A stretch of DNA of 64,000 nt from an uncultured Pseudobdellovibrionaceae bacterium (lineage in GTDB: Bacteria; Patescibacteriota; Minisyncoccia; Moranbacterales; GCA-2747515): NCBI GenBank assembly GCA_964463705.1, contig CAYXCH010000006.1:32576-96575 (forward strand), read 5' to 3'. Numbering within the stretch: the stretch's first letter is position 1; each line of letters starts with the position of its first letter. This document shows positions 34,261 through 59,573 of the stretch, piece after piece. The notes beneath the pieces are model-generated. The model was given only the letters and a program-made list of their open reading frames with translations. It ran no database searches and was not told the DNA's origin. The position numbers and the translations under genes were made by a program.

Positions 34261-34272
34261 GGATGTTTGAAG

Positions 34273-37145: not shown

Positions 37146-37158
37146 ACAACTTTAGTTA

Positions 37159-38049
37159 TCAACTGGAGAAGCTTTTATGAAAACCGGCAAGAATTTCTTG
37201 AACTATGTTTTTATTGCTATGTGCAATTTGAAATCCCTTGAAATTGGCTGATAGGTTAATTTCTATCACCCTGAACCGCTTATTGCTGTCAACGATAATA
37301 TCAACCCCCACATAATCACACAACAATTTTTGCGCAACGTTTTCGGCAAATTTAAACATTTTCACGTCATAATATGATTCAATTGAAGCGCCTTGCGAGA
37401 AGTTATGCTTCCAATCACTGGTTGTGCCCGACCTTTTAATGGCCCCAATGGTCTTTCCGGCACACACTATGACACGGTAATCACAAGTAGTTGGTATAAA
37501 CTCTTGTAAAATAATGCTCTTATCTGGATTTTTGGCAACATAGTCAACTAAATCTTGCTCGGTACTCATTTTATGTACGCTAAGACCGAAGCTTCCCTCA
37601 ACATCCTTTAAAATAATTGGAAACGACCAAGGAATAACCTTCAACAAGTATTTTGAATTTTGGCTTACAGGATGCAAGGTGTCAATTGTCGGTATATTAT
37701 ATTTCAAAAAAAGTTCATATTGTGAAAATTTATCAAAAAATGGATTTTTTGCAAAAAAATCACCATTTACCACCGGAACAGAATTTTCTCGTAAAAATAA
37801 TATCAAACGATATGTTGAAATTCTTTTTTTGATAAGTGTATTATCAACCACCTTGTCATGACAACGCACAATAGCGCCGTTAAATTGTGAAATATCCAGT
37901 AACCGCTGACGATAAATCAGTTTATTTTCATAAAAAAACAGGTTATCAACATTTATAAAAACAAACTCCCAATTCAACCTCAACGCCTCTTCTTTTATGG
38001 TTTTTACTGAGTGAAATTTTTCATTAAAACCAAAATATATAACTTTCAT
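37159..38049 (-). CDS. RimK-like ATP-grasp ligase
   Basis: DYRVIVCAGKTIGAIKRSGTTSDWKHNFSQGA matches the RimK DIR..VG...A..R....DFRSN...GG signature. Confidence 0.65.
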   Translation of the reverse strand: MKVIYFGFNEKFHSVKTIKEEALRLNWEFVFINVDNLFFYENKLIYRQRLLDISQFNGAIVRCHDKVVDNTLIKKRISTYRLILFLRENSVPVVNGDFFAKNPFFDKFSQYELFLKYNIPTIDTLHPVSQNSKYLLKVIPWSFPIILKDVEGSFGLSVHKMSTEQDLVDYVAKNPDKSIILQEFIPTTCDYRVIVCAGKTIGAIKRSGTTSDWKHNFSQGASIESYYDVKMFKFAENVAQKLLCDYVGVDIIVDSNKRFRVIEINLSANFKGFQIAHSNKNIVQEILAGFHKSFSS

Positions 38050-38058
38050 ATATTTTAC

Positions 38059-38316
38059 TTAATCCTCAAATCTAACCGAACACCTACCTATACTCACCAT
38101 TTTACAGTACTTGGAACTTGTAAGTTCTCCACCGGATAGTGAACGAGCTCCACGAAACAGTCGCAATGTACGATTAACCGCCAGGCGCATCAATCGATCT
38201 CGCTCCGCGCGTGCAGATTCTGAAAGTTCGCAAACGTCCTGATTTTTTAATTGTTCTACCGACTCCTTCACCATATCTGGCTGTCTTTGCGGATACAGTA
38301 ATAAGTTCTCTAGCAT
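38059..38316 (-). pseudogene. Internally deleted remnant of a paralog of the 35427..37145 gene
   Basis: The N-terminal ~37 aa are homologous to the N-terminus of the 572-aa protein (LYPqRqP...SVeqLkNQ...LSES). The sequence then jumps directly to a near-identical copy of its residues ~455-490 (ARAERDRLMRLAVNRTLRLFRGARSLSGGE). Confidence 0.5.
38110..38217. repeat. 108-nt direct repeat, copy B
   Basis: About 96% identical to 35631..35738. Confidence 0.8.
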
Positions 38317-38331
38317 AAATATTTCAACAGA

Positions 38332-39261
38332 TTATTTCAACTTGCTCTTGATAAGCTCTACAATTTCATCACTCATATCAACTCCAACAGCGTCAAGGCA
38401 ATGTTTGTACAATCCCGGACGTCCATTTTCATCAATAATCTTATATCCTTCATCGGTAGCGATAAAATCAAACCCTATAATATCTTTTCCGATCGCTTGT
38501 TGTGCTTTTACAGCAATATGTGCCAACTCTTCACTAACAGGTGCCGGTACCGTCTTTTGCCCGCGACCGTCCTGTTTAAGCGGATCATAAATTTTCCAAT
38601 CTACTTCATCTGATAATAACGGTTTGCGATACCCGAATAATGCCCGTCCGTTACACACCACCACCGAAATCCATCGTGACAAATCATTTTGATAGTACTT
38701 TTCTACCAAAAACTGCTGTTTAGCACCACTGAATCCCTGTACATATTCTATGCAACTTTGTAATTCATCAAATTTATCAAAACGCATAATACCAATTCCC
38801 CATCCACCGAAACGTGGCTTAAGCAACACATCACCGCCAAACGTATCAAAAACTTTGTGCAATCCGTCAATGTCACCACTGCGAATCAATGCAAAATCAC
38901 CTACCGGTAGACCTGCCTTTTTGAGCCTCGTATGTGCGAGAAACTTATCATTTGTTATACGCACACTCTCTCCTGTATTGATTACCGCTACATCAGCACC
39001 CATCACATCCAACATATGACAAAAGTAATTATCCGCTCTCCAATCAGACGGTCGTACCGTATCATGCCAAAAATAAACATCCAAATCATTTAAACACACA
39101 TCACCAACATACACTTTATTGTTGATAATGACTCCGTTGCGAAAGTCTGCCTCCACCAAATCACAATTCGTAGCGGCAACAATATCACGCTTTATGTGCT
39201 CAATATATTCGGGGGTAAAAATTCCCTGAACTGATTTATGAAATCCTATACGCTTTTTCAT
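38332..39261 (-). CDS. ATP-grasp superfamily ligase (RimK/GshB-like)
   Basis: LKPRFGGWGIGIMRFDKFDEL ... ISVVVCNGRALFGYRK pattern of the ATP-grasp fold. The start is probably MKKRIGF. Confidence 0.6.
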   Translation of the reverse strand: MKKRIGFHKSVQGIFTPEYIEHIKRDIVAATNCDLVEADFRNGVIINNKVYVGDVCLNDLDVYFWHDTVRPSDWRADNYFCHMLDVMGADVAVINTGESVRITNDKFLAHTRLKKAGLPVGDFALIRSGDIDGLHKVFDTFGGDVLLKPRFGGWGIGIMRFDKFDELQSCIEYVQGFSGAKQQFLVEKYYQNDLSRWISVVVCNGRALFGYRKPLLSDEVDWKIYDPLKQDGRGQKTVPAPVSEELAHIAVKAQQAIGKDIIGFDFIATDEGYKIIDENGRPGLYKHCLDAVGVDMSDEIVELIKSKLK

Positions 39262-40087
39262 ATCGTTTGAGTATATGATTAATAATATGGTTTGCAACAT
39301 TAATTCCGGTCGCCGACTGAAATGCTTCCCATTGCGGGGGAATATTTACTTCCAATACCAATGAATCACTACCACGTTTGATTAAGTCAACACCCGAAAT
39401 ATCATATCCAAACAACTTATGTGCTCGTAATGCCAGCGCCTTTTCCTCTTGTGATAAGTCATACTCCTCAACCTTTCCGCCGAGGGACGCATTGGTGCGA
39501 AAATCTCCTTCATTAGCATACCGCTTAATCGCCCCGAGTACCATATCACCAACCACAAACACACGGATATCGTAGCGAAGCGGAACATATTCCTGAGCCA
39601 AATACCCTATCGGATGTTCTCGCAAAAACTCTAAGGCCTGTTCTTTCGTTTCGTATTTGTTAACACCCTGTCCTTTCTGTGCTTGTTCTGGCTTCAAAAT
39701 AATTGGTGTATCTAACTTAGACAAAACTCGCTTCCACTGTTTCCAGCTTCTGGCATAAACAGTTTTCGGATGCGGAATATTATTTAACTTAAACTGTAAT
39801 GCTTCATAAACCTTCGTAGGAATATACGAACTGGCAAGCACCGTATCAATAACCAATTTATTCTTTATATGTAAATTATAAGCAAGTAACTGTGCAAAAA
39901 CAACAGATTGATTAAATCCCCTGAATATATAGATATCGTGTTGAAAAAATTCCTCCTCGTCCATCGTATCAACGGAAAATGCGATATCCGATATATTATA
40001 TACCACAACCGCAAACCCTCGGCGTGATATTTCTCGCACCAACGATTTTGTGTTAAATGTGTCCGGACCGATAATTGCGAATTTCAT
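39236..40087 (-). CDS. RimK-like ATP-grasp ligase
   Basis: ILKPEQAQKGQGV and YDIRVFVVGDMVLGAIKRYANEGDFRTNASLGG, the classic RimK signature. Confidence 0.75.
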   Translation of the reverse strand: MKFAIIGPDTFNTKSLVREISRRGFAVVVYNISDIAFSVDTMDEEEFFQHDIYIFRGFNQSVVFAQLLAYNLHIKNKLVIDTVLASSYIPTKVYEALQFKLNNIPHPKTVYARSWKQWKRVLSKLDTPIILKPEQAQKGQGVNKYETKEQALEFLREHPIGYLAQEYVPLRYDIRVFVVGDMVLGAIKRYANEGDFRTNASLGGKVEEYDLSQEEKALALRAHKLFGYDISGVDLIKRGSDSLVLEVNIPPQWEAFQSATGINVANHIINHILKRYEKAYRIS

Positions 40088-40096
40088 AAAATATTT

Positions 40097-41512
40097 TTAC
40101 TTACTCACATCAACCAAAAACTTGTAAAGGTTGCGTTTTCCGATAATCATCGGATATTTGAGCTTACTGCGGTCTACAATATTAACTTTTGCCACAATGC
40201 GTACTCCATCCATAATGAACGCCAGTTTTACAACCGGGCGAATCGTTGCGCCACTGGAAGAAAACACAACGGCAACATCTTCCAACTCCGGAATACACTG
40301 CCCGTATCGCTGCATAATACGCGACTTAATTTCACCCTCTCGTTCCGGCGATAACACACTATCGCCGTAATCAATACGATCAAATGCATCCAGTGTTTCA
40401 CCAAATCCCAACTCCCGTGCCAGCGCACGATCAATGGAGGTGGAGTATGCACCGGTGTCAATTTTTGCACTAACGGTGCGTTCGGTACCGTTTCGTCCAA
40501 TCAATGTTACCGTTTCTATGGATCCGATTACACGCTTTCCGGTTGTCTGCTCCACCGATTCCTCAACTTCTCCGCCAAAGAGGTCTTTACCGACACGAAC
40601 ACCGTGCGCAACACTCTTGATTGTTACACCGCTTACTCGTTCCAATCGCTCTTTTAACGGTGCCATATTGGCAATCTGAATAGACAACCCGGGTCGTGCA
40701 TTTAACTCCAAAAATACCGGTCCGCGCTCACGATCAATTACCACATCCGCTCCCAAAAATCCCAACCCGCTCGCCTCCTGCGCCTTCACCGCCAATGTCA
40801 AAATCTCATCCCATTGCGGAATTTTAATACCGGAAAGTAACATACGTGTCCCCGGCGCATATTCCACAATCCGCCCCTTTCCTTGAATTGCCGTAGTTGT
40901 TACTCCCGTTGCCATATCAATTCCGACACCAACACCTCCAAGCTGTAAATTCGCCTTCCCTCCACTCTCACGTGTAGGAAGCCGCAACATTGCCATTACC
41001 GGAACACGATTGTACACGATAATGCGCAGATCCGGAATTCCCCGATATGCATAGGGACGGAACAATTTCAACAGCGTTAACCGCTCTTCAATCAATACCG
41101 TGTCGGATACTCCGGATAACGCAAACGCTCCTTCCACAATATTGTAGCAGTGTGCGGCAATATCTTGTGCGGTAACAATACTCCCATCCGCCTTCACCCA
41201 AGCGTCATGCATTCCCTTCTTTCGCCCGAATACCACCACAATACCGCCACCGCCAAACCCGCGATTTGGCTTGATAACAAATGATTCCGGAAGACTGGAG
41301 TAATCAAATGTACGGACATCGTCATAAGTGCGCAGCGTGGCGATGCGTGTCGGCGTCGGCACACCGGCGCGCGATAATACGTCCTTGCTGAGAATTTTAT
41401 CATCGGCAATACTGCGTGCGGCGGATAAATTCAACGGTCGCACATACGTTAAGTTGCGCGCATTCATTCCCAGGATCCGGTGCGCGTTTCGCACCATCCG
41501 TAATATGTTCAT
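40097..41512 (-). CDS. RimK-related ATP-grasp ligase fused to a C-terminal retropepsin-like (DTG) domain
   Basis: ATP-grasp part: FVIKPNRGFGGGGIVVV ... DLRIIVYNRVPVMAMLRL...GGKANLQLGG. C-terminal part: TVSAKIDTGAYSTSIDRALARELG, with an aspartyl-protease D-T-G-A motif. Confidence 0.7.
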   Translation of the reverse strand: MNILRMVRNAHRILGMNARNLTYVRPLNLSAARSIADDKILSKDVLSRAGVPTPTRIATLRTYDDVRTFDYSSLPESFVIKPNRGFGGGGIVVVFGRKKGMHDAWVKADGSIVTAQDIAAHCYNIVEGAFALSGVSDTVLIEERLTLLKLFRPYAYRGIPDLRIIVYNRVPVMAMLRLPTRESGGKANLQLGGVGVGIDMATGVTTTAIQGKGRIVEYAPGTRMLLSGIKIPQWDEILTLAVKAQEASGLGFLGADVVIDRERGPVFLELNARPGLSIQIANMAPLKERLERVSGVTIKSVAHGVRVGKDLFGGEVEESVEQTTGKRVIGSIETVTLIGRNGTERTVSAKIDTGAYSTSIDRALARELGFGETLDAFDRIDYGDSVLSPEREGEIKSRIMQRYGQCIPELEDVAVVFSSSGATIRPVVKLAFIMDGVRIVAKVNIVDRSKLKYPMIIGKRNLYKFLVDVSK

Positions 41513-46685: not shown

Positions 46686-46946
46686 TTAAAATTTCGTATC
46701 AAATACACCGGGCGCGCGATTATACTCTTCTCGCAACATTTGCACACCCTCTCGTGCCGATGATATCGCAAATACAAACAATACAATTTGAATCACCACC
46801 AACACTACCGTTATCATCGAAAAAAAACGAATCGCTGTCCGTGCCAAGTCTTTATTGATTGTGTATGTTTTCAAGTGGTAAATAATTACCCATACAATCA
46901 CCCCATACACAACAAGAAGAAATGGAAATGCCAAAAATATCATCAT
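46686..46946 (-). CDS. Small two-TM membrane protein
   Basis: 86 aa with two hydrophobic helices. It overlaps the ruvB stop by 4 nt. Confidence 0.35.
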   Translation of the reverse strand: MMIFLAFPFLLVVYGVIVWVIIYHLKTYTINKDLARTAIRFFSMITVVLVVIQIVLFVFAISSAREGVQMLREEYNRAPGVFDTKF

Positions 46947-48001
46947 AGACGTAATCGTGTTCGCATTTCATGATACCGTGGAGGAATCGATTTGTCCAAA
47001 TGTGAAAATGCTCGTTCCAATACAACGCGCCCGCGCGGTGTTCGCATTAAAAATCCACATTGGATCAGATACGGTTCATATACTTCCTCCAACGTGTACA
47101 CTTCCTCTCCCAATGCCGCCGCCAATGTTTTTACTCCCACCGGCCCCCCACCAAAATCATCAATGATTTTTGACAATAACGCCCGATCCATCGCTTCCAA
47201 ACCACTGTGATCAATTTCCATTAACTCCAATGCAGCATCCACCACATCCTCTGTTACCGATGTTGCATTGTGCGCTTGCGCAAAATCCCGCACTCGCCGC
47301 ATTAGCCGATTAGCAACACGTGGCGTCCGACGAACACGCTGTGATAGCGCCCGTATCGCCGCCGCCTCCATCTTCACTTCCAATAATCGCGCACTTCTGG
47401 CAATAATCTGTTCCATTTCCTCCTCCTCATAAAATGCCAGCCGGTACACACTCCCGAACCGATTGCGTAACGGATTGGATAATGCGCCCATCTGTGTTGT
47501 CGCACCAATTAACGTAAACCGTGGCAACTCCAACTGCACACTGCGCGCTCCCGGACCCTTACCGACAATCAAATCAATCACTCCATCCTCCATTGCCGGA
47601 TACAACACCTCCTCCACTGTCTTACGAAGACGGTGAATTTCATCAATAAACAACACATCACCATCGGAGAGATTGGTTAATAATGCTCCCAAATCTCCCA
47701 CACGCTCAATCGCCGGACCACTTGTTACCGTAATTCCCACATTCATCTCCCGAGCGATAATATGCGACAGTGTTGTTTTTCCCAGCCCGGCACTTCCGTA
47801 AAACAACATATGATCAATAACATCTCCACGGGACTTTGCGGCGTCAATAACAATCTTAATATTGCGCTTAATGGATTGCTGCCCGATATAATCTCGCAAG
47901 TACTGCGGGCGCAGTGCGCGATCAATATCATCGCGCTTTGTCGCATCCACCGCTCTCGTTCCTGTATTATGTGATGTTTGATGTCCGATATCAATGGCCA
48001 T
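46943..48001 (-). CDS. ruvB: Holliday junction branch-migration ATPase
   Basis: AAA+ Walker A GSAGLGKTTLS, Walker B VLFIDEIHRL, sensor and winged-helix regions. Confidence 0.9.
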   Translation of the reverse strand: MAIDIGHQTSHNTGTRAVDATKRDDIDRALRPQYLRDYIGQQSIKRNIKIVIDAAKSRGDVIDHMLFYGSAGLGKTTLSHIIAREMNVGITVTSGPAIERVGDLGALLTNLSDGDVLFIDEIHRLRKTVEEVLYPAMEDGVIDLIVGKGPGARSVQLELPRFTLIGATTQMGALSNPLRNRFGSVYRLAFYEEEEMEQIIARSARLLEVKMEAAAIRALSQRVRRTPRVANRLMRRVRDFAQAHNATSVTEDVVDAALELMEIDHSGLEAMDRALLSKIIDDFGGGPVGVKTLAAALGEEVYTLEEVYEPYLIQCGFLMRTPRGRVVLERAFSHLDKSIPPRYHEMRTRLRL

Positions 48002-48059
48002 AAACTTGACAAAAAATCATTGATGTGTTATTTTACTACGTTGTACCTTGAGGTTGGAA

Positions 48060-48240
48060 GCGATGGGAATTCTGCAGAGGCGTTGACTGCCCTATCTTTT
48101 CAGTCAACGTCGCGGTCACTTGACTGTCCAGATCGGGTGGGGTGGGCAACACAATCGTGTTGTGCTGCGCCATACCTCGACTCAGTGACCCCGTGTTCGG
48201 TAACGCGACACATTCATCTGCAGAATTCTCATCGCTTTTT
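48060..48240 (+). ncRNA. Candidate ~180-nt structured RNA (6S-like architecture?) antisense to the dciA-ruvB intergenic spacer
   Basis: A 21-nt closing stem (GCGATGGGAATTCTGCAGAGG pairs with CATCTGCAGAATTCTCATCGC, 2 mismatches) encloses internal hairpins (CGTTGACTG/CAGTCAACG and CAACAC/GTGTTG). TTTTT follows. An upstream TTGACA, 17 nt, TATTTT promoter-like site lies at 48006..48034. Confidence 0.3.
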
Positions 48241-48241
48241 A

Positions 48242-48550
48242 TTATACACCAGTTTGCGCGACAACGCGGCGCACAACGGTTGCGTGACATGTCGTATTGA
48301 CATGCTCACACAACGCCGCCCGCGCCATCCATAATTCTTGCGCCCATAGCGCATCCGATACCGATACAATCAATACACCCGTTCGCAACGCTGTTACTCG
48401 CATCGCCGCCGCACCGCGACGACCATACTCTCGCTCAATATACCGTTGCGCAATATATATAACCGTCTTTTCATCCGGTACGCTACCGGACTCCGACGCA
48501 GTGGAGCGCCGTGACGCAAAGCGATCGGAAGAAATCGTTAGCTTTTTCAT
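48242..48550 (-). CDS. DUF721/DciA-like protein (putative replicative helicase loader)
   Basis: GVLIVSVSDALWAQELWMARAALCEHVN matches the DUF721 pattern (L.V.V.SS.WAQEL......L...N). It lies immediately downstream of dnaN. Confidence 0.55.
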   Translation of the reverse strand: MKKLTISSDRFASRRSTASESGSVPDEKTVIYIAQRYIEREYGRRGAAAMRVTALRTGVLIVSVSDALWAQELWMARAALCEHVNTTCHATVVRRVVAQTGV

Positions 48551-49653
48551 GTGCGAATCGGCATCACGACATAACGATACGCCGTTGCGCCATCATGTGG
48601 CACAATCAGCACCGGAGCGGCGGGCTGCGTAATATGGATTTCCACCGAATCACTGCCACATCGCGATACACCATCCAACACATACCGAGGATTAAGACGC
48701 AATGTTTGCGATCCTCCTTCCACCGTTGCCGAAAGCGTTGTTGTGTGTGTACCGCTTTCCTGTGACGCCGCGGACAGCGTTAGTGTATCTTTTTCCACCG
48801 CCATTTCCATATCACTGTTAATGCGATGAGCGAATGTTTGCGCCACTCGTAAGGCCTTCTCCATATCTCCACGAGATACTACCGCCACTGTTTCACCACG
48901 AGAAGGAATGATTTGCGCATAATCCGGATATGTCGCCGCAATCAATCGTGACACAATCGTAACATCACCGCAACGAACAAACATCTGCCCATCACCTACC
49001 ATCATCCGCACCCCATCATCCGGTACATCCGTCAACACGGAAAGAAGTTCCGCAACAGCGGATGCCGGAACGATAACACTATCGGTAAACCCTCCTTCGG
49101 TACGAGTACACCGCACCTCCGCCAAACGAAATCCATCCGTTGCGGCAAGAACAATATCTTCTCCGTCCGATGCAATAAATACCCCACCCAATTCCGGACG
49201 CGCTTCCGTCTTTGCAACACAGGGAATCACGCGAGACAGTGCATCACGAAATGACGCCACCGGCACTACAACCGCCGTCTCCGCCGACTCCGCAGATGGC
49301 AATGGGGGGAAATCCGCCGCATCCAACATTGGAAGCGTCGCCTGACTCCTCTTTGCACGAATCAATACCGAGCGATCTTGTGTTTCAATTGTTACCACAT
49401 CATCATCTTGCAGTGGCGCGATAAAGCTCCCTAATAAATGCGGCGCACATACCACCTGCCCATCGCGTTCCGCTTTCGCCGACAACTGCACCCGCACACC
49501 GACATCCAAATTTGTCGCTACACAAGATGCAATACCATCACCGACGGATAATAAAACATTTCGCACAATGGGCAATGTACCATCTCGTGCCACCGCCTTT
49601 GCGCTCAACCGAAGCGCGCGATCCAAATGTTGTTTTGTAATGGTAATCTTCAT
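48547..49653 (-). CDS. dnaN: DNA polymerase III beta sliding clamp
   Basis: MKITITKQHLDRALRLSAKAV N-terminus and a three-domain length, directly downstream of dnaA. Confidence 0.85.
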   Translation of the reverse strand: MKITITKQHLDRALRLSAKAVARDGTLPIVRNVLLSVGDGIASCVATNLDVGVRVQLSAKAERDGQVVCAPHLLGSFIAPLQDDDVVTIETQDRSVLIRAKRSQATLPMLDAADFPPLPSAESAETAVVVPVASFRDALSRVIPCVAKTEARPELGGVFIASDGEDIVLAATDGFRLAEVRCTRTEGGFTDSVIVPASAVAELLSVLTDVPDDGVRMMVGDGQMFVRCGDVTIVSRLIAATYPDYAQIIPSRGETVAVVSRGDMEKALRVAQTFAHRINSDMEMAVEKDTLTLSAASQESGTHTTTLSATVEGGSQTLRLNPRYVLDGVSRCGSDSVEIHITQPAAPVLIVPHDGATAYRYVVMPIRT

Positions 49654-49863: not shown

Positions 49864-51276
49864 CTACAGGTTACGCAACTTCTTTCTCAATGTGTCAAGA
49901 TCCGAACGCAATGTCGCATCTTGAGTACTGTTTTTTCTTACCTTACGATACCCATGCATAACGGTGGAATGATCTCGTCCGCCCAATTGCGATCCAATTT
50001 CCGGAAACGAGAGATTGAGCTCTTCTCTTAGCAGGTACATGGCGGCATGACGCGCTCCGGCAATTGCTTTTTTTCGTGATGTGCCGCGTAAATCGTCCGG
50101 GGATACACCAAAGTGCTCCGCTACAAGTTCAAGTACCGAGGAGGCGGTATTTGCCGGTGTGTTTCGCGTCACGTGCGGAGCAAGGATTTCCTCTACAACG
50201 GCACGAGACGGAATACGATTATGGAATGTACACAGAGCGGCGATTTTATTTAATGCTCCCTCTAACTCACGGACATTTTGCGCCACATGTTTGGCGATAA
50301 ACTGTGCGGCATCTTCCGGGAGAATAAGATCTTTTTCATCCGCTTTTTTTTGCAGAATCGCTACCCGAGTTTCAAAGTCCGGTGGGCTAATGTCCGCAAT
50401 CATACCACCTTCAAAGCGAGAGCGCAGGCGATCTTCCAGTGTGGCGATTTCGTGAGGTGGACGATCGGAGGAAATGATAATTTGCTTGTTTTGTTGGTAC
50501 AGATGGTTAAAGATATGGAAAAATTCATCTTGTGTTTTCTCTTTTCCCGCCAAAAATTGTACATCATCAATAATCAGTAGATCAATTTCTCTATAGAGGC
50601 GCTTAAAATCGGAGATGGTGTTATTGTGAATGGCATCAATCAATTCACTGGTAAATCGCTCCGAAGAGGTGTAAAGTACGCGTTTAGTGGGATCATTTTT
50701 GACAATAGCATTTCCAATCGCTTGCAGGAGGTGCGTTTTTCCCAGTCCGACATCGCCATAAATAAATAAAGGGTTGTAGGCGCTTCCCGGAGTGGCGGCA
50801 ACTGTTCGTCCCGCAGCATGTGCCAATTCGTTATGAGAGCCGACGATAAAATTGTCAAAAGTATATCGTGTGTTGAGATAGGTATTTGTTTGCGGTGTCG
50901 GTTTCGTGCGAGGAGTGGTAATCGGAGGTGTGGTTGGTGTGGATGATGTTGGACGAAGTGTTGGGCGCTTTGGTTTTGAGGGTAGGGTGGATGGTGCTCC
51001 AACACGGACGGCATCTACACTTCGTGGAGGTGCGGCAACAAGATTGCACCGGATTCGTGTAACATTCGGTGCATGTTTTTTTAGTGCGCGAACTACAATA
51101 TCGGCACACTTGGTTTCAATCCAACTTTTAGCAAACCCGTTTGGTGTACGGATGACCGCACAATCTCCTTCAATGGACTCCAGGGCGGTATTTTTGAACC
51201 ATGTAATAAAATTTGCGCGAGAAATGGATAACTCAATTTCCCCCAGCGCCGCTGTGTACAATTTTTGTAGATCCAT
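49864..51276 (-). CDS. dnaA: Chromosomal replication initiator protein
   Basis: AAA+ Walker A GDVGLGKTHLLQAIGN, Walker B LLIIDDVQFL, and C-terminal DnaA-box-binding helix-turn-helix. Confidence 0.9.
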   Translation of the reverse strand: MDLQKLYTAALGEIELSISRANFITWFKNTALESIEGDCAVIRTPNGFAKSWIETKCADIVVRALKKHAPNVTRIRCNLVAAPPRSVDAVRVGAPSTLPSKPKRPTLRPTSSTPTTPPITTPRTKPTPQTNTYLNTRYTFDNFIVGSHNELAHAAGRTVAATPGSAYNPLFIYGDVGLGKTHLLQAIGNAIVKNDPTKRVLYTSSERFTSELIDAIHNNTISDFKRLYREIDLLIIDDVQFLAGKEKTQDEFFHIFNHLYQQNKQIIISSDRPPHEIATLEDRLRSRFEGGMIADISPPDFETRVAILQKKADEKDLILPEDAAQFIAKHVAQNVRELEGALNKIAALCTFHNRIPSRAVVEEILAPHVTRNTPANTASSVLELVAEHFGVSPDDLRGTSRKKAIAGARHAAMYLLREELNLSFPEIGSQLGGRDHSTVMHGYRKVRKNSTQDATLRSDLDTLRKKLRNL

Positions 51277-51515
51277 AGGAAAAATGTATTGCGTTTGGTT
51301 TTAGTTTACCACATGACAATAGTTGTTGTGGAAAACTGTGGAAAAAATAGTGGAAAACATGATACTTTTTCACAGTGTTATAAAAAAACGTTGGAAATAA
51401 AAGAAAACTTCTGTACATATAGTACAAAAGTTTTCCACAGTTTGATAATAATTAAGATGAAAAAACTGTAGGAGAATTAATATAATTTCCCATTATGAAA
51501 GTGATTTTTCCACAG
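51277..51515. promoter_or_regulatory. Probable oriC. A DnaA-box array flanks AT-rich unwinding segments.
   Basis: Three TGTGGAAAA-type boxes at 51327..51357 and three TTTTyCACA boxes at 51366..51374, 51431..51439 and 51506..51514. AT-rich stretches lie at 51380..51430 and 51442..51505. Confidence 0.55.
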
Positions 51516-53244
51516 TTTCTTGTGTATAAACATGTAAAACATCACCTTTTTTAATTCGCACCGGTGTTGTGATTTGTATTCCACACTCTTTTCCGCTCGT
51601 AATCACATCCGTATCCATTGCACCCTCTTTAATTCCCGTAATTTCTCCCACTGCCAACTCTGTTCCGTCTCGCATGATACGAGCAAAGGTGTTGGGCCGC
51701 AATTCTCCCGTATCCACAATACCCCCGATAATCATGCGCTGTTGTTCTTTGTGGAAAATTGCCAGCACATCAACGGTCCCAATATCGGTGCGGATAACTT
51801 CATCGGGAAGGTTGTCCAACAATGTTGCTGTAATGGCGTCCACCACTTCATAGATAATGGAATATGTTTCAATCGTAACACCACGATCCTCTGCCATTCG
51901 TCGCGCAACAGAGGTGGCGTGAATATTAAACCCGTAAATGCGTGCTCCGGCACTTTGTGCAAGTTTAACATCGGACTCCGTAATATTTCCCACTCCGGTG
52001 GATACAATATCCAATGCGATTTTTTTCTTCGGAATAGTGTCCAAAATTTGTATGATTGCTTCAATAGATCCTTGAACATCCGCTTTAATGAGAATGGGAA
52101 GATGTGGAATATCATCCTCGGTTTTCTTTGTAGTGACTTCTCCCTCTGCGCGGCGCGCTTTGGCACGGGCGATTTGTTTTCCACTCACGACTTGTACAAC
52201 ATCATTGACATCCGGAGCATCGTTGAGTCCGTAAATTGTAACAGCGCTACTGGGTGGTGCACTGGAAACACTGCGTCCCGTATGATCTTCCATGCGACGA
52301 ATGCGCCCATGAGTGGATCCAACAGTAACATCATGTCCCACTTTTAGTGTTCCCGTTTTTACAACAACAGTTGCGGTCGCTCCCTTTTTTGGATCTCTGT
52401 GGGATTCCAATACCACCGCCAACCCATCACGTTCCTCATCGGCACGGTAATCTTCCACTTCCGCCAGCAATAGAATATTTTCCAATAAATCACCGATTCC
52501 GATATTGTTTTTCGCACTGATTTCATTGCAAATGATATCACCGCCCCACTCTTCAATCATCAATCCATGCTCCGCAAGCTCTTGTTTTACTTTTGCAACA
52601 TTGGCGGTGGGTTTATCAATTTTATTGATGGCAACAATTGTTTTGATATTGCGCTCTTTAATATATGCAATCACTTCCTCTGTTTGCGGACGAATACCAT
52701 CATCGGCGGCGACGATAAGAATTGCAATATCGGCAAGTGACGCTCCGCGCTCACGCATGGCGGCAAATGCCGCGTGTCCCGGAGTATCAATAAAAGTAAT
52801 GAATTTCCCTCGTTTTTTGACTTGATACGCACTGATATGTTGCGTAATGCCCCCCGCTTCACTTGCTGCAACACTGGCGGCGCGAATTGTGTCCAATAGT
52901 GTTGTTTTTCCATGATCAACATGTCCGAGAATTGTGACAACCGGCGGACGGCTGCGGAGATTTTTTCCACTTTCTCGCTCTTTTTCGCAAATTGTCAAGA
53001 CATCTTCCAGCGTCAGTGTATCATCATCGCCAACGGTAACATCAGGATGTGGAGAAAATCCCAAATCTTCCGCGATAATCACCGCCGTTTCATAATCAAT
53101 ATCTTCATTGATGGTTGCCATGATGCCGTTTTTCATCAACTCACCGATAACGGTGGTAACCGGCAATTCCATAATTTCCGCCAATCGTTTAACGGTTACG
53201 CGATCGGGAATGGCGATTTCGCGAAGTGAAGAAGATGTTGTCAT
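51493..53244 (-). CDS. infB: Translation initiation factor IF-2 (short form, 583 aa)
   Basis: G-domain ILGHVDHGKTTLLDTIR, DTPGHAAF and NKID motifs. C-terminal beta-barrel domains. Confidence 0.9.
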   Translation of the reverse strand: MTTSSSLREIAIPDRVTVKRLAEIMELPVTTVIGELMKNGIMATINEDIDYETAVIIAEDLGFSPHPDVTVGDDDTLTLEDVLTICEKERESGKNLRSRPPVVTILGHVDHGKTTLLDTIRAASVAASEAGGITQHISAYQVKKRGKFITFIDTPGHAAFAAMRERGASLADIAILIVAADDGIRPQTEEVIAYIKERNIKTIVAINKIDKPTANVAKVKQELAEHGLMIEEWGGDIICNEISAKNNIGIGDLLENILLLAEVEDYRADEERDGLAVVLESHRDPKKGATATVVVKTGTLKVGHDVTVGSTHGRIRRMEDHTGRSVSSAPPSSAVTIYGLNDAPDVNDVVQVVSGKQIARAKARRAEGEVTTKKTEDDIPHLPILIKADVQGSIEAIIQILDTIPKKKIALDIVSTGVGNITESDVKLAQSAGARIYGFNIHATSVARRMAEDRGVTIETYSIIYEVVDAITATLLDNLPDEVIRTDIGTVDVLAIFHKEQQRMIIGGIVDTGELRPNTFARIMRDGTELAVGEITGIKEGAMDTDVITSGKECGIQITTPVRIKKGDVLHVYTQETVEKSLS

Positions 53245-53254
53245 AGGTGTCAGT

Positions 53255-53749
53255 TTAATTCTGTTCAGTAGTGGCGCGTGTTAGCGCCTCCCGCTCTTCA
53301 TCGGAAAGAGTGTAGGGAGAAGTATGATTGGTTAATGGTTTCGCATAAATTCGCGTTCCATCTCTTGTATGCAGAGAAGAAACGATAACACCGTCCCCGT
53401 GAGCATTAAGGAGTGCAAGAGCGAAACTTTGATCTCCACCCAAATCTTTGAACGGATTATACCGCACAACATGAACATGATGAATACTGCGATGGGCAAT
53501 GGCGCGTGTAGCGTCATGCTCCTCTCGTAAAGCGGAAATCTCCGCACGGAGCGCATCCAATTCTTTGTTATGGGCGTGAATTGTGTCTTCCAGAGTGGCG
53601 CCACGCTTTCCTCGTGTCAAATGCGCCACCGTTTGTGTCAGTTGTCGATAACGAAACCAAAGGAATACCAGTGCGCCAATAACAATACACAGCGCACAGG
53701 CAAGTGCGACCACAGCCCAAATGAGTTCATGTGGTGAAAGCGGTATCAT
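53255..53749 (-). CDS. DUF4446-like protein (N-terminal TM, coiled coil, conserved C-terminal domain)
   Basis: VVRYNPFKDLGGDQSFALALLNAHGDGVIVSSLHTRDGTRIYAKPL matches the DUF4446 core. Confidence 0.5.
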   Translation of the reverse strand: MIPLSPHELIWAVVALACALCIVIGALVFLWFRYRQLTQTVAHLTRGKRGATLEDTIHAHNKELDALRAEISALREEHDATRAIAHRSIHHVHVVRYNPFKDLGGDQSFALALLNAHGDGVIVSSLHTRDGTRIYAKPLTNHTSPYTLSDEEREALTRATTEQN

Positions 53750-53768
53750 GTCTTTACGCTATCACTTC

Positions 53769-53797
53769 TTTGCGATATTGTAAATGTTCGGTATACT
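53769..53797 (+). promoter_or_regulatory. Sigma70-like promoter for the FNR-like gene
   Basis: TTGCGA, a 17-nt spacer, then TATACT. Confidence 0.45.
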
Positions 53798-53823
53798 AAA
53801 ATCATGGAATTAACAGCACACGG

Positions 53824-54522
53824 ATGACCCCGCGTTCGTATACGATTACACTTCGGGAGAAGCGAGAAATTGCGGAACAGACGATTGCCGCATCCTTTGT
53901 TGCTGATCAAGAAGTTGTGTTTCGTCCCGGACAGTTTGCCACATTGCGTAATCCCTCATTAAGCCCGCAAGAGGCAACACGAGTGTTTTCTTTTGCGTCC
54001 GCCCCATCAGATACGGAGCTATTGTTTGTATGGCGACACAGTGACAGTGTGTGGAAACGTGCCGCCGCCGAAATGGCACCGGGAGAAACGCTCACAATGA
54101 TTGCTCCCGCCGGACACGCAACGATTCCGGAGGGGTTACCGGTGGTATTTTTGGTGGCGGGTATTGGAATTACACCGGTACGTAGCATCGTGCGTGATGC
54201 CCGATACACCGGGGTGAAAACGGATTTTGTTTTACTATACTCCAATCGGTCTCGTGCATCAACTGCATTTTTTGACGAATTTTCCCGTTATAATTCGGAG
54301 GGGGTGTGCCGAACGGTATTTACGATGACAGACGATAATCAATGGAATGGAGAGCGTTCCATGATCGATGTGGAATGTGTCCGCCGCCATGTTCCCGATA
54401 TTGCAAGGCGGCATATATACATTGTCGGCGCCGGCGGGTTTGTTCGTGCAATGGAAGGAGTGGTGGCGCAGCTGGGTATTGCCAAAGATCGCATTATTTG
54501 CGATAATTTTGGCGGTGCGTAA
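53824..54522 (+). CDS. Ferredoxin-NADP reductase-like FAD/NAD(P)-binding oxidoreductase
   Basis: FAD-binding RPGQFATL...RVFSFAS (the R-x-Y-S motif) and NAD-binding VAGIGITP, with LLYSNRS. Confidence 0.65.
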   Translation: MTPRSYTITLREKREIAEQTIAASFVADQEVVFRPGQFATLRNPSLSPQEATRVFSFASAPSDTELLFVWRHSDSVWKRAAAEMAPGETLTMIAPAGHATIPEGLPVVFLVAGIGITPVRSIVRDARYTGVKTDFVLLYSNRSRASTAFFDEFSRYNSEGVCRTVFTMTDDNQWNGERSMIDVECVRRHVPDIARRHIYIVGAGGFVRAMEGVVAQLGIAKDRIICDNFGGA

Positions 54523-54932: not shown

Positions 54933-55025
54933 TGCACCCGTTGACGATTTCAATATTTTGCGGTAAGATAAAGCAAGTTTGGCGTTGGTAACGCGTTTTT
55001 GTTATTGTTTGATGCAGATACTGTT

Positions 55026-55727
55026 ATGCACACAACACTGATAGAATTTAATCGTACTCAGCGGGATGCGGATGCTACAACATTTCGTGCCGGAGATGTT
55101 GTCCGTGTTCATCGGAAAATCGTTGAGGGAAACAAGGAGCGTATACAGGTTTTTGAGGGTATGGTGATTGTTATGCGCGGTGGACAGAGTTCGTCACCGA
55201 TGATGACGGTGCGAAAGGTTTCCAATGGTGTCGGAGTGGAAATTGTTGTTCCGATATATTCTCCAAATATTGTAAAGATTGAGCGTGTAAAGCGTGCAAA
55301 GGTTCGTCGAGCAAATATTCGCTTTATCCGCACCAAGCCGGTGAAAAAATTGCGATTTTCCTTTACCGACGCAAAGACGGTGGAAGAGAAAGAGGCGGCA
55401 TATCGTGCGCGAACAGCGAATGATAATACGGATGATGCCGCTGCGGCTGATACCACCACCTCCGCATCAACAGACACTCCCACCGATGATTTGACAAAGA
55501 TTGAAGGAATCGGTCCCAAAATCGCCCAAACACTTGCCGATGCCGGAATCACCACCTTTGCCGCATTGGCGGATGCAGACACGGACACAATTGAACAAAT
55601 CATCTCTTCTGTTCGCGGCTCTCACTCTCCCGCAACATGGAGCAAGCAAGCCGCCCTTGCCCGAGACGGAAAGTGGGAAGAGCTCTCCGCATGGCAAGAG
55701 GAGTTGGTTGGCGGAAAAGAAGCGTAG
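55026..55727 (+). CDS. rplS: Ribosomal protein L19 with ~130-aa C-terminal extension containing a helix-hairpin-helix motif
   Basis: The L19 core is RAGDVVRVHRKIVEGNKERIQVFEGMVI...VRKVSNGVGVEIVVPIYSPNIVKIERV. The extension has an acidic/Thr-rich linker, then IEGIGPKIAQTLADAGITTFAALA (HhH). Confidence 0.8.
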   Translation: MHTTLIEFNRTQRDADATTFRAGDVVRVHRKIVEGNKERIQVFEGMVIVMRGGQSSSPMMTVRKVSNGVGVEIVVPIYSPNIVKIERVKRAKVRRANIRFIRTKPVKKLRFSFTDAKTVEEKEAAYRARTANDNTDDAAAADTTTSASTDTPTDDLTKIEGIGPKIAQTLADAGITTFAALADADTDTIEQIISSVRGSHSPATWSKQAALARDGKWEELSAWQEELVGGKEA

Positions 55728-56077: not shown

Positions 56078-58675
56078 ATGACACAGAAACTCTTACGCCT
56101 AATTGCGAGAATTTACGGATTTTTCTTGCATCGCCGATATACGGTGACGGTACGCGGTGCTGATGTGATACGTCCCGATACCGCATCGCTAATTCTTCCC
56201 AATCACCAGGCAATGGTAGATCCGCAATTATTACTGTGTGATCTTGCATCGCGTGGTGTCATGCCGGCGCCGGTAGTGGCACGGTATATTTATGAAATTC
56301 CCGGTTTGCATACACTGTTGCGATGGATATCCGCACTCCCCATTGGAATGGAAGACGGGGAACAAAGTGTTTCGGAAACACATGCGGCAATCATATCTCA
56401 TATACGAAATGGTGGTCATGTAGTGGTGTACCCATCCGGGCAAACGCAGTCCCAAGGATATGAAATCATTGGAGCAAAGCGAACGGCGTATGAGGTGGCA
56501 AGCGCATTGCCGAATACTCGGCTAATCGGTGTACGAATTTCCGGATTATGGGGGAGTGTGTGGAGTCGGGCATATACCGGTCGTGTACCAAAATTGGAAC
56601 GCGTACTCCCCTACTCCGTTCTGATGATGATATTGAACGGTATTATATTTACACCGCGACGAACGGTTTGTATAGAATATGAGGATCTTACGGAAACATT
56701 GAGGTCCTGTACAACACGTGCGGAATTCAATGCCGCATTGGAACATTTTTACAATATAAATGGAGAAGAGACAGCACGATTTATTCCACATCATTGGTTG
56801 TTTCGCAAAACGTCCCGTTCGCTTCCGCAACACATTGAAGGAGCGAGAAATCGGCGGCTGTTTACATCGGCACAAGTTTCCGATGAGGTTCGTGCAATAG
56901 TGGATGAGGCGATTGCAACGGTGACGGACGGAGCAATTCAGTCTCCGAACGCATCCTGGCGATTGGATAAGGAGTGTGATTTGGATTCATTACAGCGTGC
57001 CGAAGTGGTAACGATGGTATGTCAGCGCTTCGAGCGACCGGTTGTGTCAGATATTTCTCGTATTCAAGTGGTGGAAGATCTTTATGCGCTGGCACGAGAA
57101 CACGAAGAAGAATCACCACTGCCACCATACGATGCAATACATACGGGAGAGTCGTCACGTCGGAAGATATCACGGAGCGCAACGATTCTGGATGCATTTT
57201 TTTCCGCCATTCAATCCTCTCCCGCATCACCATGGGTCTTTGACATCATTCGCGGCGGCGCAAGCGCGCGAAATGTGTTAATGCGAGCAATGATTGTATC
57301 AGACATTATTCGTCGGGCAACATCGCGAGAGCGAGTAGGGATTTTATTACCGGCATCACAAGGGGCGGCGATCGCTATTTTGGCATGCTATTTGTGTGGG
57401 AAGATTCCGGTGATGATAAACTGGACGGCCGGGCATCGAGCGTTGCGCCATATGGTTCGTTGCGGAATGATTGATACGATTATTACGGCGCGATCATTTT
57501 TTTCACGCATAGAGCAAGACATGCCGAAATCATTGGTGTCGCGTTATGTTTATTTGGATGTGGAGGCGTCTCGTTTGTCCCGGTGGCGAATATTGCGAGG
57601 AGTAGTGATGAGTATGATGCCGACGATACTTCATCGTCGCAATATTCCAGAAACGGCGGTTGTATTATTTACCAGTGGGAGTGAATCTCTTCCCAAGGCC
57701 GTTCCCCTGACACATCAAAATATTTTACATAATATTCAGGCGGCGTTACGTGTAGTGGACGTACGCAGTGATGATATTTTATTGGGAATCCTTCCCCCGT
57801 TTCACAGCTTTGGATTTACGGTAACGACGATTTTGCCGCTAGTGGCTGCGGTGCGTGTCGTCTATGTTCCGGATCCGACGGATGCGCGGAGTATTGTGCG
57901 AGCAATCGCACATACGAATGCCACGCTGTTCCCCACTGCCCCGACGTTTTTGCGTTCCGTGGTATCTGCATCGGCGGACGGTGCGTTATCATCGTTGAGA
58001 ATTATTTTGACCGGTGCGGAAGCTTGTGATACGGCACTGCGCCATGCTTGTCAGCGAGTTGCTCCCGGAGCGCAAATTTATGAAGGATATGGAGTAACGG
58101 AGTGTTCGCCGGTAGTAACTCTTGCCACTACTCCACATACCGGTGTCGGTGCGCCGTTACCGGGAGTGCACGTCAGCGTGCGAGATATTCAAACTCATGA
58201 AGAATGTCCACCGTCACAGTTGGGAATGATTTGGGTCCATGGCCCCAACGTATTTAACGGTTATGAGTGCGTGAAGAATACGGATACCTTTCGGATGTTT
58301 GATCATCGGCGATACTATAAAACGGGAGATCTTGGAGTGTTAGATAAGGAAGGAAATCTTTTCCTGCGCGGTCGTCTTAAGCGGTTTGTTAAGGTGGGAG
58401 GAGAAATGGTTAGCTTACCGATGATTGAGGAGATGATTTCAGACATATTTCCCGACAACGAAGATGGTCCACAGTATGCAGTGGTATCCGATGCCTCGGA
58501 TCACATACTATGTGTAACCGTTTGTCGTGATATTACGCGGGAGCATATCAATGATGCATTAGTGCGGCACGGTGCTCCGCGTGTTGCACGCGTGGCGGCG
58601 ATCCGGTATGTGGAACGTATTCCACTATTAGGGAGTGGAAAAGTGGATTATCGCACTCTGCAAAAAAATGTATGA
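56078..58675 (+). CDS. aas: Aas-like tri-domain protein: lysophospholipid acyltransferase, acyl-carrier-like domain, and acyl-ACP/acyl-CoA synthetase (AMP-binding)
   Basis: N-terminal HQAMVDP (HxxxxD acyltransferase motif). Mid-region LDSLQRAEVVTMV with a DSL carrier-protein serine context. C-terminal AMP-binding motifs (LFTSGSESLPKAV, GYGVTE, YKTGDLG, RLKRFVKVGGEMV). Confidence 0.8.
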   Translation: MTQKLLRLIARIYGFFLHRRYTVTVRGADVIRPDTASLILPNHQAMVDPQLLLCDLASRGVMPAPVVARYIYEIPGLHTLLRWISALPIGMEDGEQSVSETHAAIISHIRNGGHVVVYPSGQTQSQGYEIIGAKRTAYEVASALPNTRLIGVRISGLWGSVWSRAYTGRVPKLERVLPYSVLMMILNGIIFTPRRTVCIEYEDLTETLRSCTTRAEFNAALEHFYNINGEETARFIPHHWLFRKTSRSLPQHIEGARNRRLFTSAQVSDEVRAIVDEAIATVTDGAIQSPNASWRLDKECDLDSLQRAEVVTMVCQRFERPVVSDISRIQVVEDLYALAREHEEESPLPPYDAIHTGESSRRKISRSATILDAFFSAIQSSPASPWVFDIIRGGASARNVLMRAMIVSDIIRRATSRERVGILLPASQGAAIAILACYLCGKIPVMINWTAGHRALRHMVRCGMIDTIITARSFFSRIEQDMPKSLVSRYVYLDVEASRLSRWRILRGVVMSMMPTILHRRNIPETAVVLFTSGSESLPKAVPLTHQNILHNIQAALRVVDVRSDDILLGILPPFHSFGFTVTTILPLVAAVRVVYVPDPTDARSIVRAIAHTNATLFPTAPTFLRSVVSASADGALSSLRIILTGAEACDTALRHACQRVAPGAQIYEGYGVTECSPVVTLATTPHTGVGAPLPGVHVSVRDIQTHEECPPSQLGMIWVHGPNVFNGYECVKNTDTFRMFDHRRYYKTGDLGVLDKEGNLFLRGRLKRFVKVGGEMVSLPMIEEMISDIFPDNEDGPQYAVVSDASDHILCVTVCRDITREHINDALVRHGAPRVARVAAIRYVERIPLLGSGKVDYRTLQKNV

Positions 58676-59229
58676 TTGCCGTAGAAGTGATGTATGCTCG
58701 CGGATCGTGTCGGTGGAATATGATGCAACAACGAGTACGAGCACGACAGTGTTGTCGTCGTGTGGCGAAGCGATGCGGCACAGTTATTAATTGTACATCT
58801 CGGGAGTATCGTTGCGGCAATTTATGGTGGAGCACATCTCATGTATGTCGTAAAACCGATGCTGCCGTAGCGGCGGCAATTTCATCACTTGCACCGGTCG
58901 GTGTTGATGTGGAAGTCATTACTCCTCGCGACCCATCATTGCAATTACTGTTTTCTTTAGAGGAATATAATCGTGTCGGCGGACGGTCATGGGAAGCGTT
59001 TTTCCGTCTTTGGTGCGCGCGCGAGGCGGTAATAAAAGCGAGATCGCTAACATTATCCGCATTAACAACACTATGCTGTACAGACTATCGTCACAGTACA
59101 CTATGGATATCCGGTATGGGAGTAAGTATGAAAGTGTTTATGGATGTGCGGGAAGGAGTATGTATGGCGGTAACGGTTCCGCCCTCTTGTCAAAATGTGC
59201 AAGTTTGGTATACTTGTGATTGTACATAG
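58672..59229 (+). CDS. 4'-phosphopantetheinyl transferase (AcpS/Sfp-like)
   Basis: PVGVDVEVI and WCAREAVIKA motifs. It overlaps the stop of the aas-like gene by 4 nt. The true start may be an internal Met. Confidence 0.6.
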   Translation: MIAVEVMYARGSCRWNMMQQRVRARQCCRRVAKRCGTVINCTSREYRCGNLWWSTSHVCRKTDAAVAAAISSLAPVGVDVEVITPRDPSLQLLFSLEEYNRVGGRSWEAFFRLWCAREAVIKARSLTLSALTTLCCTDYRHSTLWISGMGVSMKVFMDVREGVCMAVTVPPSCQNVQVWYTCDCT

Positions 59230-59235: not shown

Positions 59236-59309
59236 GGGCGATTAGCTCAGTTGGTTAGAGCACTTCTCTTACAAAGAAGGGGTCAGTGGTTCGAGTCCAC
59301 TATCGCCCA
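59236..59309 (+). tRNA. tRNA-Val (anticodon UAC)
   Basis: Acceptor GGGCGAU/AUCGCCC, anticodon loop CUUACAA, T-loop UUCGAGU. Confidence 0.85.
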
Positions 59310-59327
59310 CTGGGTAGGCATGGAGAT

Positions 59328-59399
59328 GCCGGGGTAGCTCAGTGGTAGAGCAAAGGACTGAAAATCCTTGTGTCGGCAGTTCGATTCTGCCTCCCGGCA
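59328..59399 (+). tRNA. tRNA-Phe (anticodon GAA)
   Basis: GCCGGGGUAGCUCAGUGGUAGAGC 5' half, anticodon loop CUGAAAA, T-loop UUCGAUU. Confidence 0.85.
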
Positions 59400-59416
59400 C
59401 CTACTCGTTGCAAGCG

Positions 59417-59489
59417 GGGACCGTAGCTCAGGGGTGAGAGCAGGCGGCTCATAACCGCTTGGTCGCGGGTTCAAATCCTGCCGGTCCCA
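59417..59489 (+). tRNA. tRNA with CAU anticodon (Met, or Ile if lysidine-modified)
   Basis: Acceptor GGGACCG/CGGUCCC, anticodon loop CUCAUAA, T-loop UUCAAAU. Confidence 0.8.
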
Positions 59490-59494
59490 CAATC

Positions 59495-59566
59495 GCGAGT
59501 GTCGTATAATGGTTATTATATCACCTTGCCAAGGTGGGGATGGCGGTTCGATTCCGCTCACTCGCT
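59495..59566 (+). tRNA. tRNA-Gly (anticodon GCC)
   Basis: Its 5' half is near-identical to the tRNA-Gly(UCC) at 54565. Anticodon loop UUGCCAA. Confidence 0.85.
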
Positions 59567-59573
59567 CAGAGAA

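Follow-up and report, generated by a model that had tools for sequence, protein, structure and literature searches.

6S RNA is a rod of about 200 nt. Two helical arms, both interrupted, flank a central bubble that has relatively little structure; the apical arm contains a '-35-like' region, and a '-10-like' region is found on the bubble's 3' side (PMC8876501). The 6S-related RNA Ms1 is longer (about 300 nt), carries extra hairpins at its ends and binds the RNA polymerase core (PMC9130861, PMC4191392). RNAs of the 6S type are divergent in sequence and are found via structure, and models of 6S missed Ms1 (PMC9130861, PMC8876501). The locus analyzed here lies in a 64,000-nt stretch of a Moranbacterales contig (hereafter the window), in the spacer between ruvB and a dciA-family gene, where a preliminary description had recognized a structured element with its own promoter and had speculatively compared it with 6S-like small RNAs. 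Moranbacteria belong to the candidate phyla radiation (CPR), bacteria that have tiny genomes (~1 Mb) and are almost entirely uncultured, and their non-coding RNAs are barely charted. A literature search for 6S, non-coding RNA or lineage-specific structured RNA in Patescibacteria or Moranbacteria found nothing relevant.

The ruvB-dciA spacer and the RNA gene within it

The spacer between ruvB and dciA occupies positions 48002-48241 (240 nt), and the element lies inside it on the plus strand, antisense to both neighbours. The features of the locus are listed below.

46943-48001, minus strand: ruvB, the conserved divergent neighbour; its ATG is 5 nt from the -35 hexamer of the RNA gene
48006-48034, plus strand: promoter found by consensus scan, with -35 TTGACA (48006-11), 17-nt spacer ending in TGT, with TG at 48026-27, and -10 TATTTT (48029-34)
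48040-48243, plus strand: predicted transcript of about 205 nt, from the conserved GUUG after the -10 to the U-tract, as inferred from promoter geometry and U-tract
48045-48054, plus strand: H0, a vestigial 5' hairpin (ACC/GGU) in a single-sequence fold of the leader
48056-48078 / 48217-48239, plus strand: P1, the closing stem, 23 bp in the window fold (repeat search and RNA fold)
48079-48111, plus strand: H1 hairpin, 11 bp in the window (48079-89 / 48101-11), consensus 9 bp (fold and alignment)
48114-48190, plus strand: H2, a long arm made of a basal stem (48114-20 / 48184-90), an irregular core and a tip hairpin (alignment and fold)
48192-48207, plus strand: H3, a short hairpin CGUGUU/AACGCG (single-sequence fold)
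48236-48240, plus strand: U-tract, TTTTT in the sequence directly 3' of P1, the presumed 3' end or terminator
48242-48550, minus strand: DciA-family gene, 102 aa (Pfam PF05258, DciA, E = 1.9e-8)
48547-49653, minus strand: dnaN, beyond dciA
49864-51276, minus strand: dnaA, beyond dnaN

The sign of the GC skew switches at about 50-54 kb, beside dnaA and within 49864-54000, which places the RNA locus 2-3 kb from the presumed replication origin. The RNA gene is head-on to the replication fork, an uncommon orientation for a strongly promoted gene. The IF-2 gene (51493-53244, minus strand) is directly upstream of dnaA, and an exact-protein look-up of the DciA protein of the window gave no match.

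Several other features of the window were recorded. An ORF of 242 aa (54999-55727, plus strand) encodes ribosomal protein L19 with a helix-hairpin-helix (HHH_5) domain joined to its C-terminus, and the same fusion is found in a relative (L090 5195-5968, 257 aa; L numbers denote the homologous loci described below). An acyltransferase/AMP-binding enzyme fusion (865 aa) overlaps a 4'-phosphopantetheinyl transferase gene at 56078-59229 (plus strand), and the latter is followed by a Val-Phe-Met-Gly tRNA cluster (59236-59567). Two stretches, 32000-40000 and 62000-64000, are low in GC (0.35-0.41 vs about 0.47 elsewhere in the window) and may be acquired regions; the first of them contains several RimK-like ATP-grasp paralogues (37159-41512) and two ORFs that have no Pfam match (34273-35049 and 35427-37145).

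The plus-strand promoter read previously as TTGACA, 17 nt and TATTTT is present, and it is additionally extended by the TG. A pattern scan found TTGACA, exactly 17 nt ending in TGn, and TAnnnT in all 13 copies of the element. In the window, the perfect form TTGACA-N14-TGnTAnnnT occurs at just two sites, one of which is the promoter of the RNA; when one mismatch was allowed, 7 sites were found vs 1.5 expected. The other perfect site (5938-5966, plus strand) is upstream of the ORF at 5986-7029. The pattern shows a predicted sigma-70-type promoter with an extended -10, close to consensus and present in every copy.

The plus strand of the element folds at -93.3 kcal/mol, as against -61.5 +/- 4.5 kcal/mol for 200 dinucleotide shuffles (z = -7.1, 0/200 as good), and the minus strand at -83.7 kcal/mol (z = -6.4). 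The domain is closed by an inverted repeat at 48058-48078 / 48217-48237. Its 21-nt arms are as originally reported, but they hold one mismatch and not two, this mismatch is a G·U on the plus strand, and the stem formed in the RNA is 23 bp. The two internal hairpins proposed at the outset were found at 48079-89 / 48101-11 and at 48146-52 / 48157-63, and the TTTTT following the closed domain is likewise in place.

The two arms of P1 in the window (48066-48076 and 48219-48229) contain adjacent EcoRI and PstI sites (GAATTCTGCAG / CTGCAGAATTC). Relatives carry CTGTAGAC at the PstI position, and PstI itself is restricted to the nearest clade of the window, where L083 also has it and L084 has it on a single arm. 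GAATTC is present in several relatives. The two sites side by side in P1 look like a coincidence and not like vector sequence.

Homologous loci, covariation and architecture

Homologues were sampled at ruvB-linked loci. Among 185,579 species genomes, the closest relatives of the RuvB protein of the window belong to two Candidatus Moraniibacteriota MAGs (74% and 73% identity). Both have the order dnaA-dnaN-dciA-spacer-ruvB, and both spacers carry a homologous element on the strand opposite to ruvB. A RuvB protein search together with exact-protein look-ups supplied seven more syntenic loci (RuvB 65-75% identical), all with the element. A three-motif DNA pattern scan of metagenome contigs yielded two contigs, both duplicates of loci already obtained. 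Ten syntenic spacers were aligned as the training set of a covariance model (CM), which matches the window at 48058-48245 with 148.7 bits. This model found three copies beyond its training set, L091 (92.7 bits), L093 (88.9 bits) and L096 (86.7 bits), with E values of about 1e-20 each, in genomes whose RuvB is merely 60-64% identical to that of the window; L093 is the complete genome CP064994.1. In total, 13 distinct Moranbacteria loci carry the element, with RuvB 60-75% identical, and the inverted repeats, whose absence from homologous spacers had been named beforehand as an observation that would refute the proposal, are present in all 13. The CM gave no match on 78 ruvB loci of other phyla (604 kb) or near ruvB in five other CPR genomes. 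A CM match of 18 bits at 22651-22690 of the window was rejected as just a terminator hairpin; it is a perfect 15-bp hairpin between an A-run and a T-run, and is probably a bidirectional terminator.

At every one of the 13 loci, the RNA and ruvB are divergent and the promoter of the RNA lies at its ruvB-proximal end; the neighbour on the far side varies. It is a convergent dciA in 10 loci, which make up the clade of the window. In L091 it is a 141-aa ORF on the RNA's strand (3045-3470, minus) that has no Pfam family, and in L096 a convergent gene for a pilB-like ATPase whose 3' end points toward the RNA; in L093 a 10-codon ORF with a strong Shine-Dalgarno sequence is right 3' of the RNA. Same-strand ORFs outside any Pfam family follow the RNA at L091 3045-3470, L091 1793-2368 and L093 8054-8275 (all minus strand), and a homologue of the second L091 ORF is common to the L091 and L093 genomes. 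L093 is also the sole locus in which the RNA and ruvB are not adjacent: IS30-type transposase-like fragments lie between them (8854-9846), with an N-terminal HTH_38 match and a C-terminal motif judged IS30-like by eye. A cis-regulatory leader or riboswitch was rejected, since dciA is convergent in 10 loci and the other three have unrelated or spurious downstream ORFs, so that there is no conserved downstream gene.

Judging from these loci, the RNA gene is apparently inherited vertically at one chromosomal position in Moranbacteria and is not mobile. The closing repeats could in principle belong to the DNA, as the 21-nt terminal inverted repeats of a MITE, as a recombination site or as an origin-associated structure, and the distance of 2-3 kb to the skew switch at dnaA would suit the last of these. 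We nevertheless all but discount a DNA-level element. It is single-copy in the window, where its repeat arms occur nowhere else (0 chance matches expected), and it is always at the same chromosomal position; no match was obtained in viral contigs, phage records or plasmids; its arms covary rather than being conserved as sites for a transposase; and the strand-specific excess of G·U pairs described next makes no sense for duplex DNA. A MITE or other mobile element was rejected on the same grounds.

Covariation in the homologous spacers, one of the checks proposed initially, proved extensive. Among 12 sequences, 93.6% of the pair cells are standard pairs, as compared with 37.6-50.8% after shifting the partners by 1-3 columns; both-side changes occur in 41 of 61 pairs, and 0 of 500 shuffles reach any of the observed measures. 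Part of this alignment was fitted to the CM and is biased toward the structure, which somewhat inflates the pair numbers. RNAalifold on a MAFFT alignment that predates any model reported compensatory changes in 36 of the 61 pairs. In addition, G·U or U·G cells number 88 and A·C or C·A cells 11, and this excess indicates that the fold is selected on RNA of the window's plus strand. We regard it as nearly certain that the element is a genuine structured RNA gene on the plus strand. The initial reading of a stand-alone small-RNA gene antisense to its neighbours is thus borne out by promoter, U-tract and 13 homologous loci.

When folded alone, all 13 sequences form a closing stem around H1, with its conserved loop, and the long H2 arm. 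A hairpin at the H3 position forms in each of the 13 when the segment is folded separately; the whole-sequence folds of L085, L087 and L093 deviate in details. The alignment fold agrees with these single-sequence folds, and together they show a predicted four-way junction of P1, H1, H2 and H3 after a 5' hairpin. The parts of this fold differ greatly in how they are conserved.

P1 is a continuous helix of 20-24 bp across the copies. As helix 1 of the alignment it comprises 22 pairs, 14 of them changed on both sides, with 94.7% of cells paired. The 8 bp at its top hardly vary (CUGUAGAC/GUCUACAG; the window has CUGCAGAG). H1 (helix 2) is built on an exact repeat core (48081-89 / 48101-09), is 99.1% paired and has both-side changes in 7 of 9 pairs; its 11-nt loop (48090-48100, CCCUAUCUUUU) has a 9-nt core, CUAUCUUUU, that is the same in 11 of 13 copies. 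H2 (helices 3 and 4) has both-side changes in 7/8 and 13/22 pairs. Its base covaries over 7-8 bp and its tip is variable in length (48146-52 / 48157-63 in the window). The core between them is irregular and sequence-invariant, with a consensus of 5' GUCCAGAUCGGG.RGGRUGG opposite 3' CUGYGC...CCUCGAC, which in the window reads 5' GUCCAGAUCGGG.GGGGUGG (48126-46) and 3' CUGCGC...CCUCGAC (48164-81); its bulges (CA, UC and A) are conserved, and an invariant G·U lies beside a near-invariant U·G. H3 lies outside the consensus of the CM and is predicted from single-sequence folds; at its position every copy has a 5-7 bp hairpin whose sequence is wholly different between species (UCCGGG/CCCGGA in L089, GUAAAG/CUUUAC in L083, GUGAAA/UUUCAC in L088, UGAGAA/UUCUCA in L090 and CCUCG/CGAGG in both L091 and L093). 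H0 shows the same kind of variation: in 10 relatives it has 5-10 bp, with GUUG at its start, CAAC at its close and stem sequences that are species-specific, while the leaders of L091 and L093 have no clean hairpin and that of L096 has a weak one of 4 bp. The linker between H0 and P1 is short and often A-rich.

The core is 165-192 nt long across the copies, and inclusion of the 5' hairpin brings the length to 205-258 nt. Of the 13 copies, 10 have a T-run after P1. Among the remaining three, L088 lacks one, and L091 and L096 instead carry a terminator hairpin of its own some way downstream. From promoter and 3' end we infer that the RNA is probably transcribed abundantly and ends after P1. In several relatives an A-run is also present just 5' of P1 (e.g. 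L001 603-612 and L087 2886-2895), and it is weak or missing in the window, L083 and L089. With such an A-run the opposite strand reads a stem followed by a U-run, and in these A-tract relatives P1 could also terminate the dnaA-dnaN-dciA transcript ahead of ruvB.

Candidate identities and proposed mode of action

Rfam 15, which covers 6S, Ms1, SRP, RNase P, tmRNA, Y RNA, riboswitches, ribozymes and orphan classes, was searched with the whole 64-kb window at the gathering threshold. Nothing was found at the element, and no canonical 6S anywhere in the window. The scan with 6S and other Rfam models that had been proposed as a check was extended to E <= 10 for the elements of the window, L091 and L085, and again no family matched consistently; the weak matches obtained are noise, inconsistent between members (ToxI, psaA, Afu_190, Sphinx_2 and bxd_2).

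Individual candidates were rejected as follows. ARAGORN reported no tRNA or tmRNA at the locus. A P4-type pairing of RNase P was considered from GUCC..GGGCAGG and ACAGAUCCCGG strings; no RNase P model matched, and the pairing was rejected because the 3' string is not conserved: CCCGG is the 3' arm of H3 in one subclade, and the sequence at this place is unrelated in the window, L083, L088 and L090. For SRP RNA there was no model match and, in a by-eye comparison with the helix 8 motif of E. coli 4.5S RNA, no resemblance. A tRNA-like cloverleaf or Y RNA was rejected since none of the loops of H3 is a T-loop and the proteins scanned include neither Rsr/TROVE nor RtcB. The neighbours, ruvB and dciA, and the lack of an RT domain in the 26 window proteins scanned argue against a retron ncRNA; genes for reverse transcriptase, Ro/TROVE or Cas proteins were found neither nearby nor among these 26 proteins.

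Invariance in the RNA is concentrated in three patches, namely the top of P1, the loop of H1 and the middle of H2, while the junction strands, the stems and the tip of H2 vary freely. Together they might make up a surface that is recognized by a conserved partner in the cell, most probably a protein. The length of H1 is constant, and invariance in H2 begins at a corresponding distance from the junction. Contact between the loop of H1 and the core of H2 is conceivable via an AUCU:AGAU pairing. Of 12 sequences, 11 can form the 4 bp between AUCU of the loop and AGAU in the bulge region of H2, and L083 can add a fifth; the pairing shows no covariation and suggests a possible loop-to-bulge contact. 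The pattern of conservation would fit a compact particle with a fixed surface, not a rod, a simple antisense RNA or a seed-pairing RNA. Our favoured reading, held with moderate confidence, is that of a previously undescribed stand-alone RNA which acts in trans via a conserved folded surface that binds a partner. The near-perfect promoter and strong covariation, kept across loci whose RuvB is only about 60% identical, indicate that the RNA likely does something important.

As to the partner, RNA polymerase, engaged in a 6S- or Ms1-type role, may be the most concrete candidate. In its full form this would make the RNA the functional 6S or Ms1-type RNA of the lineage, which binds RNA polymerase by mimicry of promoter DNA. 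P1 would then stand in for the downstream duplex, the irregular core of H2 for the '-35-like' region and the junction region for the opened bubble; such an RNA may template short product RNAs. Several observations are consistent with it. The 5' and 3' parts of the 165-192-nt core pair with each other as a long closing stem; the irregular apical arm has conserved bulges at a distance of 10-25 bp from the centre; the predicted promoter is very strong; all members of the lineage that were sampled possess the RNA; the window lacks a canonical 6S match; and divergent 6S RNAs are found by structure, while the end hairpins of Ms1 resemble H0 (PMC9130861, PMC8876501). We nevertheless consider this identity unlikely. 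Apart from the failure of any model to match at E <= 10 in three family members, the centre of the RNA is a four-way junction with H1 (9-11 bp, 99% paired) on its 5' side and H3 (5-7 bp) on its 3' side, which fill the place of an unstructured bubble and leave no single-stranded template segment except the H1 loop. H2 is irregular, but P1 is uninterrupted over 20-24 bp, and the arms of 6S are interrupted by loops (PMC8876501). Since the centre consists of two covarying hairpins and not of an open bubble, membership is unsupported, and none of the tests placed the RNA, as modelled, in the 6S family. The 6S-like assignment of the preliminary description is accordingly unsupported, there being no Rfam 15 6S match, no central bubble and an uninterrupted closing stem.

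The position of the gene raises the alternative that its main role is in cis, whereby the antisense gene collides or pairs with a dnaA-dnaN-dciA-ruvB transcript and sets the expression of ruvB, and P1 may in addition serve as a bidirectional terminator. The divergent linkage of the RNA and ruvB is retained in 13/13 loci, and in 10 of them the whole RNA is antisense to the transcript of the dciA-ruvB spacer. In the clade of the window the -35 is 2-127 nt from the ruvB start codon (<=56 nt in 6 of 10 loci), leaving little or no room for a separate ruvB promoter, and the A-tract before P1 in several relatives is a U-tract on the other strand. As the main role this seems quite improbable. The gap between the RNA promoter and ruvB is about 220-250 nt in L091 and L096 and about 1.2 kb in L093, where the IS remnant lies, and dciA is not upstream in these loci; as the overlap is lost in the three most distant loci and the core of the RNA is kept, interference is not the conserved function. 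Moreover, antisense action requires no conserved loops, bulges or G·U pairs, and the 88:11 asymmetry reflects selection on the fold of the plus-strand RNA itself. In the clade of the window, full complementarity to the intergenic transcript and a -35 immediately beside the start codon of ruvB make it likely that ruvB expression suffers some interference in cis as a side effect, and for these 10 loci out of 13 an antisense or transcription-interference role is indistinguishable from action in trans.

Action in trans could also proceed by base pairing, with the pyrimidine-rich H1 loop (CUAUCUUUU) as the seed of an sRNA for purine-rich mRNA sites. In its favour, the 11-nt loop sits exposed at the end of a stable stem that covaries, and 11/13 copies share the same 9-nt core. 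However, the window shows no excess of the complement, AAAAGAUAG (19 sites at <=1 mismatch vs 14 +/- 3.5 expected); its only exact site there is the element itself, and seed-type sRNAs seldom have two more invariant structured patches and a closing stem of 22 bp. We give this explanation a slim chance. A ligand-binding or catalytic RNA with a compact tertiary fold, acting in trans, would agree with the four-way junction and its constant arm lengths, and an invariant loop that could dock with an irregular helix (AUCU:AGAU, 11/12) is typical of globular RNAs. It seems very improbable, as no riboswitch or ribozyme model of Rfam 15 matched, no regulated downstream gene is conserved, the junction strands are variable and the tertiary contact shows no covariation.

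A broader proposal may be made tentatively and with somewhat more doubt than belief, namely that the element represents a new core, lineage-wide class of CPR structured RNA, unrelated to 6S and the described families, whose compact four-way-junction fold binds a partner (protein or small molecule) or is catalytic.

Comparison with described RNAs

The element is a new RNA family, absent from Rfam 15 and from the searchable literature. At the least it adds a variant to the structured housekeeping or regulatory RNAs that stand alone in bacterial genomes; it may even be a class of its own. Either way, the CM built from the present loci allows a phylum-wide survey.

Like the msr-msd RNA of retrons, it has terminal inverted repeats that close a domain with a short and then a long hairpin. 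Unlike them, it has no adjacent reverse transcriptase and is apparently inherited vertically at one site, not in a mobile defence island.

With 6S RNA (SsrS, RF00013) it shares a length of about 180-200 nt, core ends paired in a long stem, an irregular apical arm, a strong promoter and lineage-wide occurrence. It differs in the missing CM match, in a junction filled by hairpins, in the continuity of P1 and in the extra 5' hairpin outside P1. The likeness to Ms1 is of another kind: both are lineage-specific, both were missed by the 6S model, synteny and structure led to them, and both have additional hairpins at the ends. Ms1, in contrast, is about 300 nt long with a central bubble, and the present RNA is shorter, has no bubble and shows no similarity to it in sequence or model. 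If it is nevertheless a counterpart of 6S or Ms1, it would represent a new structural way of engaging RNA polymerase; if it is not, it would be a new RNA class whose partner can be sought.

The orphan structured RNAs of bacteria, such as raiA, OLE and ROOL, are known through comparative genomics and have no known biochemical function. The present RNA resembles them in its strong covariation, its several stems, its invariant loops and bulges and its restriction to a lineage. All three are in Rfam, where none of them matched, and the present RNA is smaller than OLE and ROOL and, as far as sampled, confined to Moranbacteria. As a new class it would join OLE or raiA, in genomes of about 1 Mb where each retained gene likely matters.
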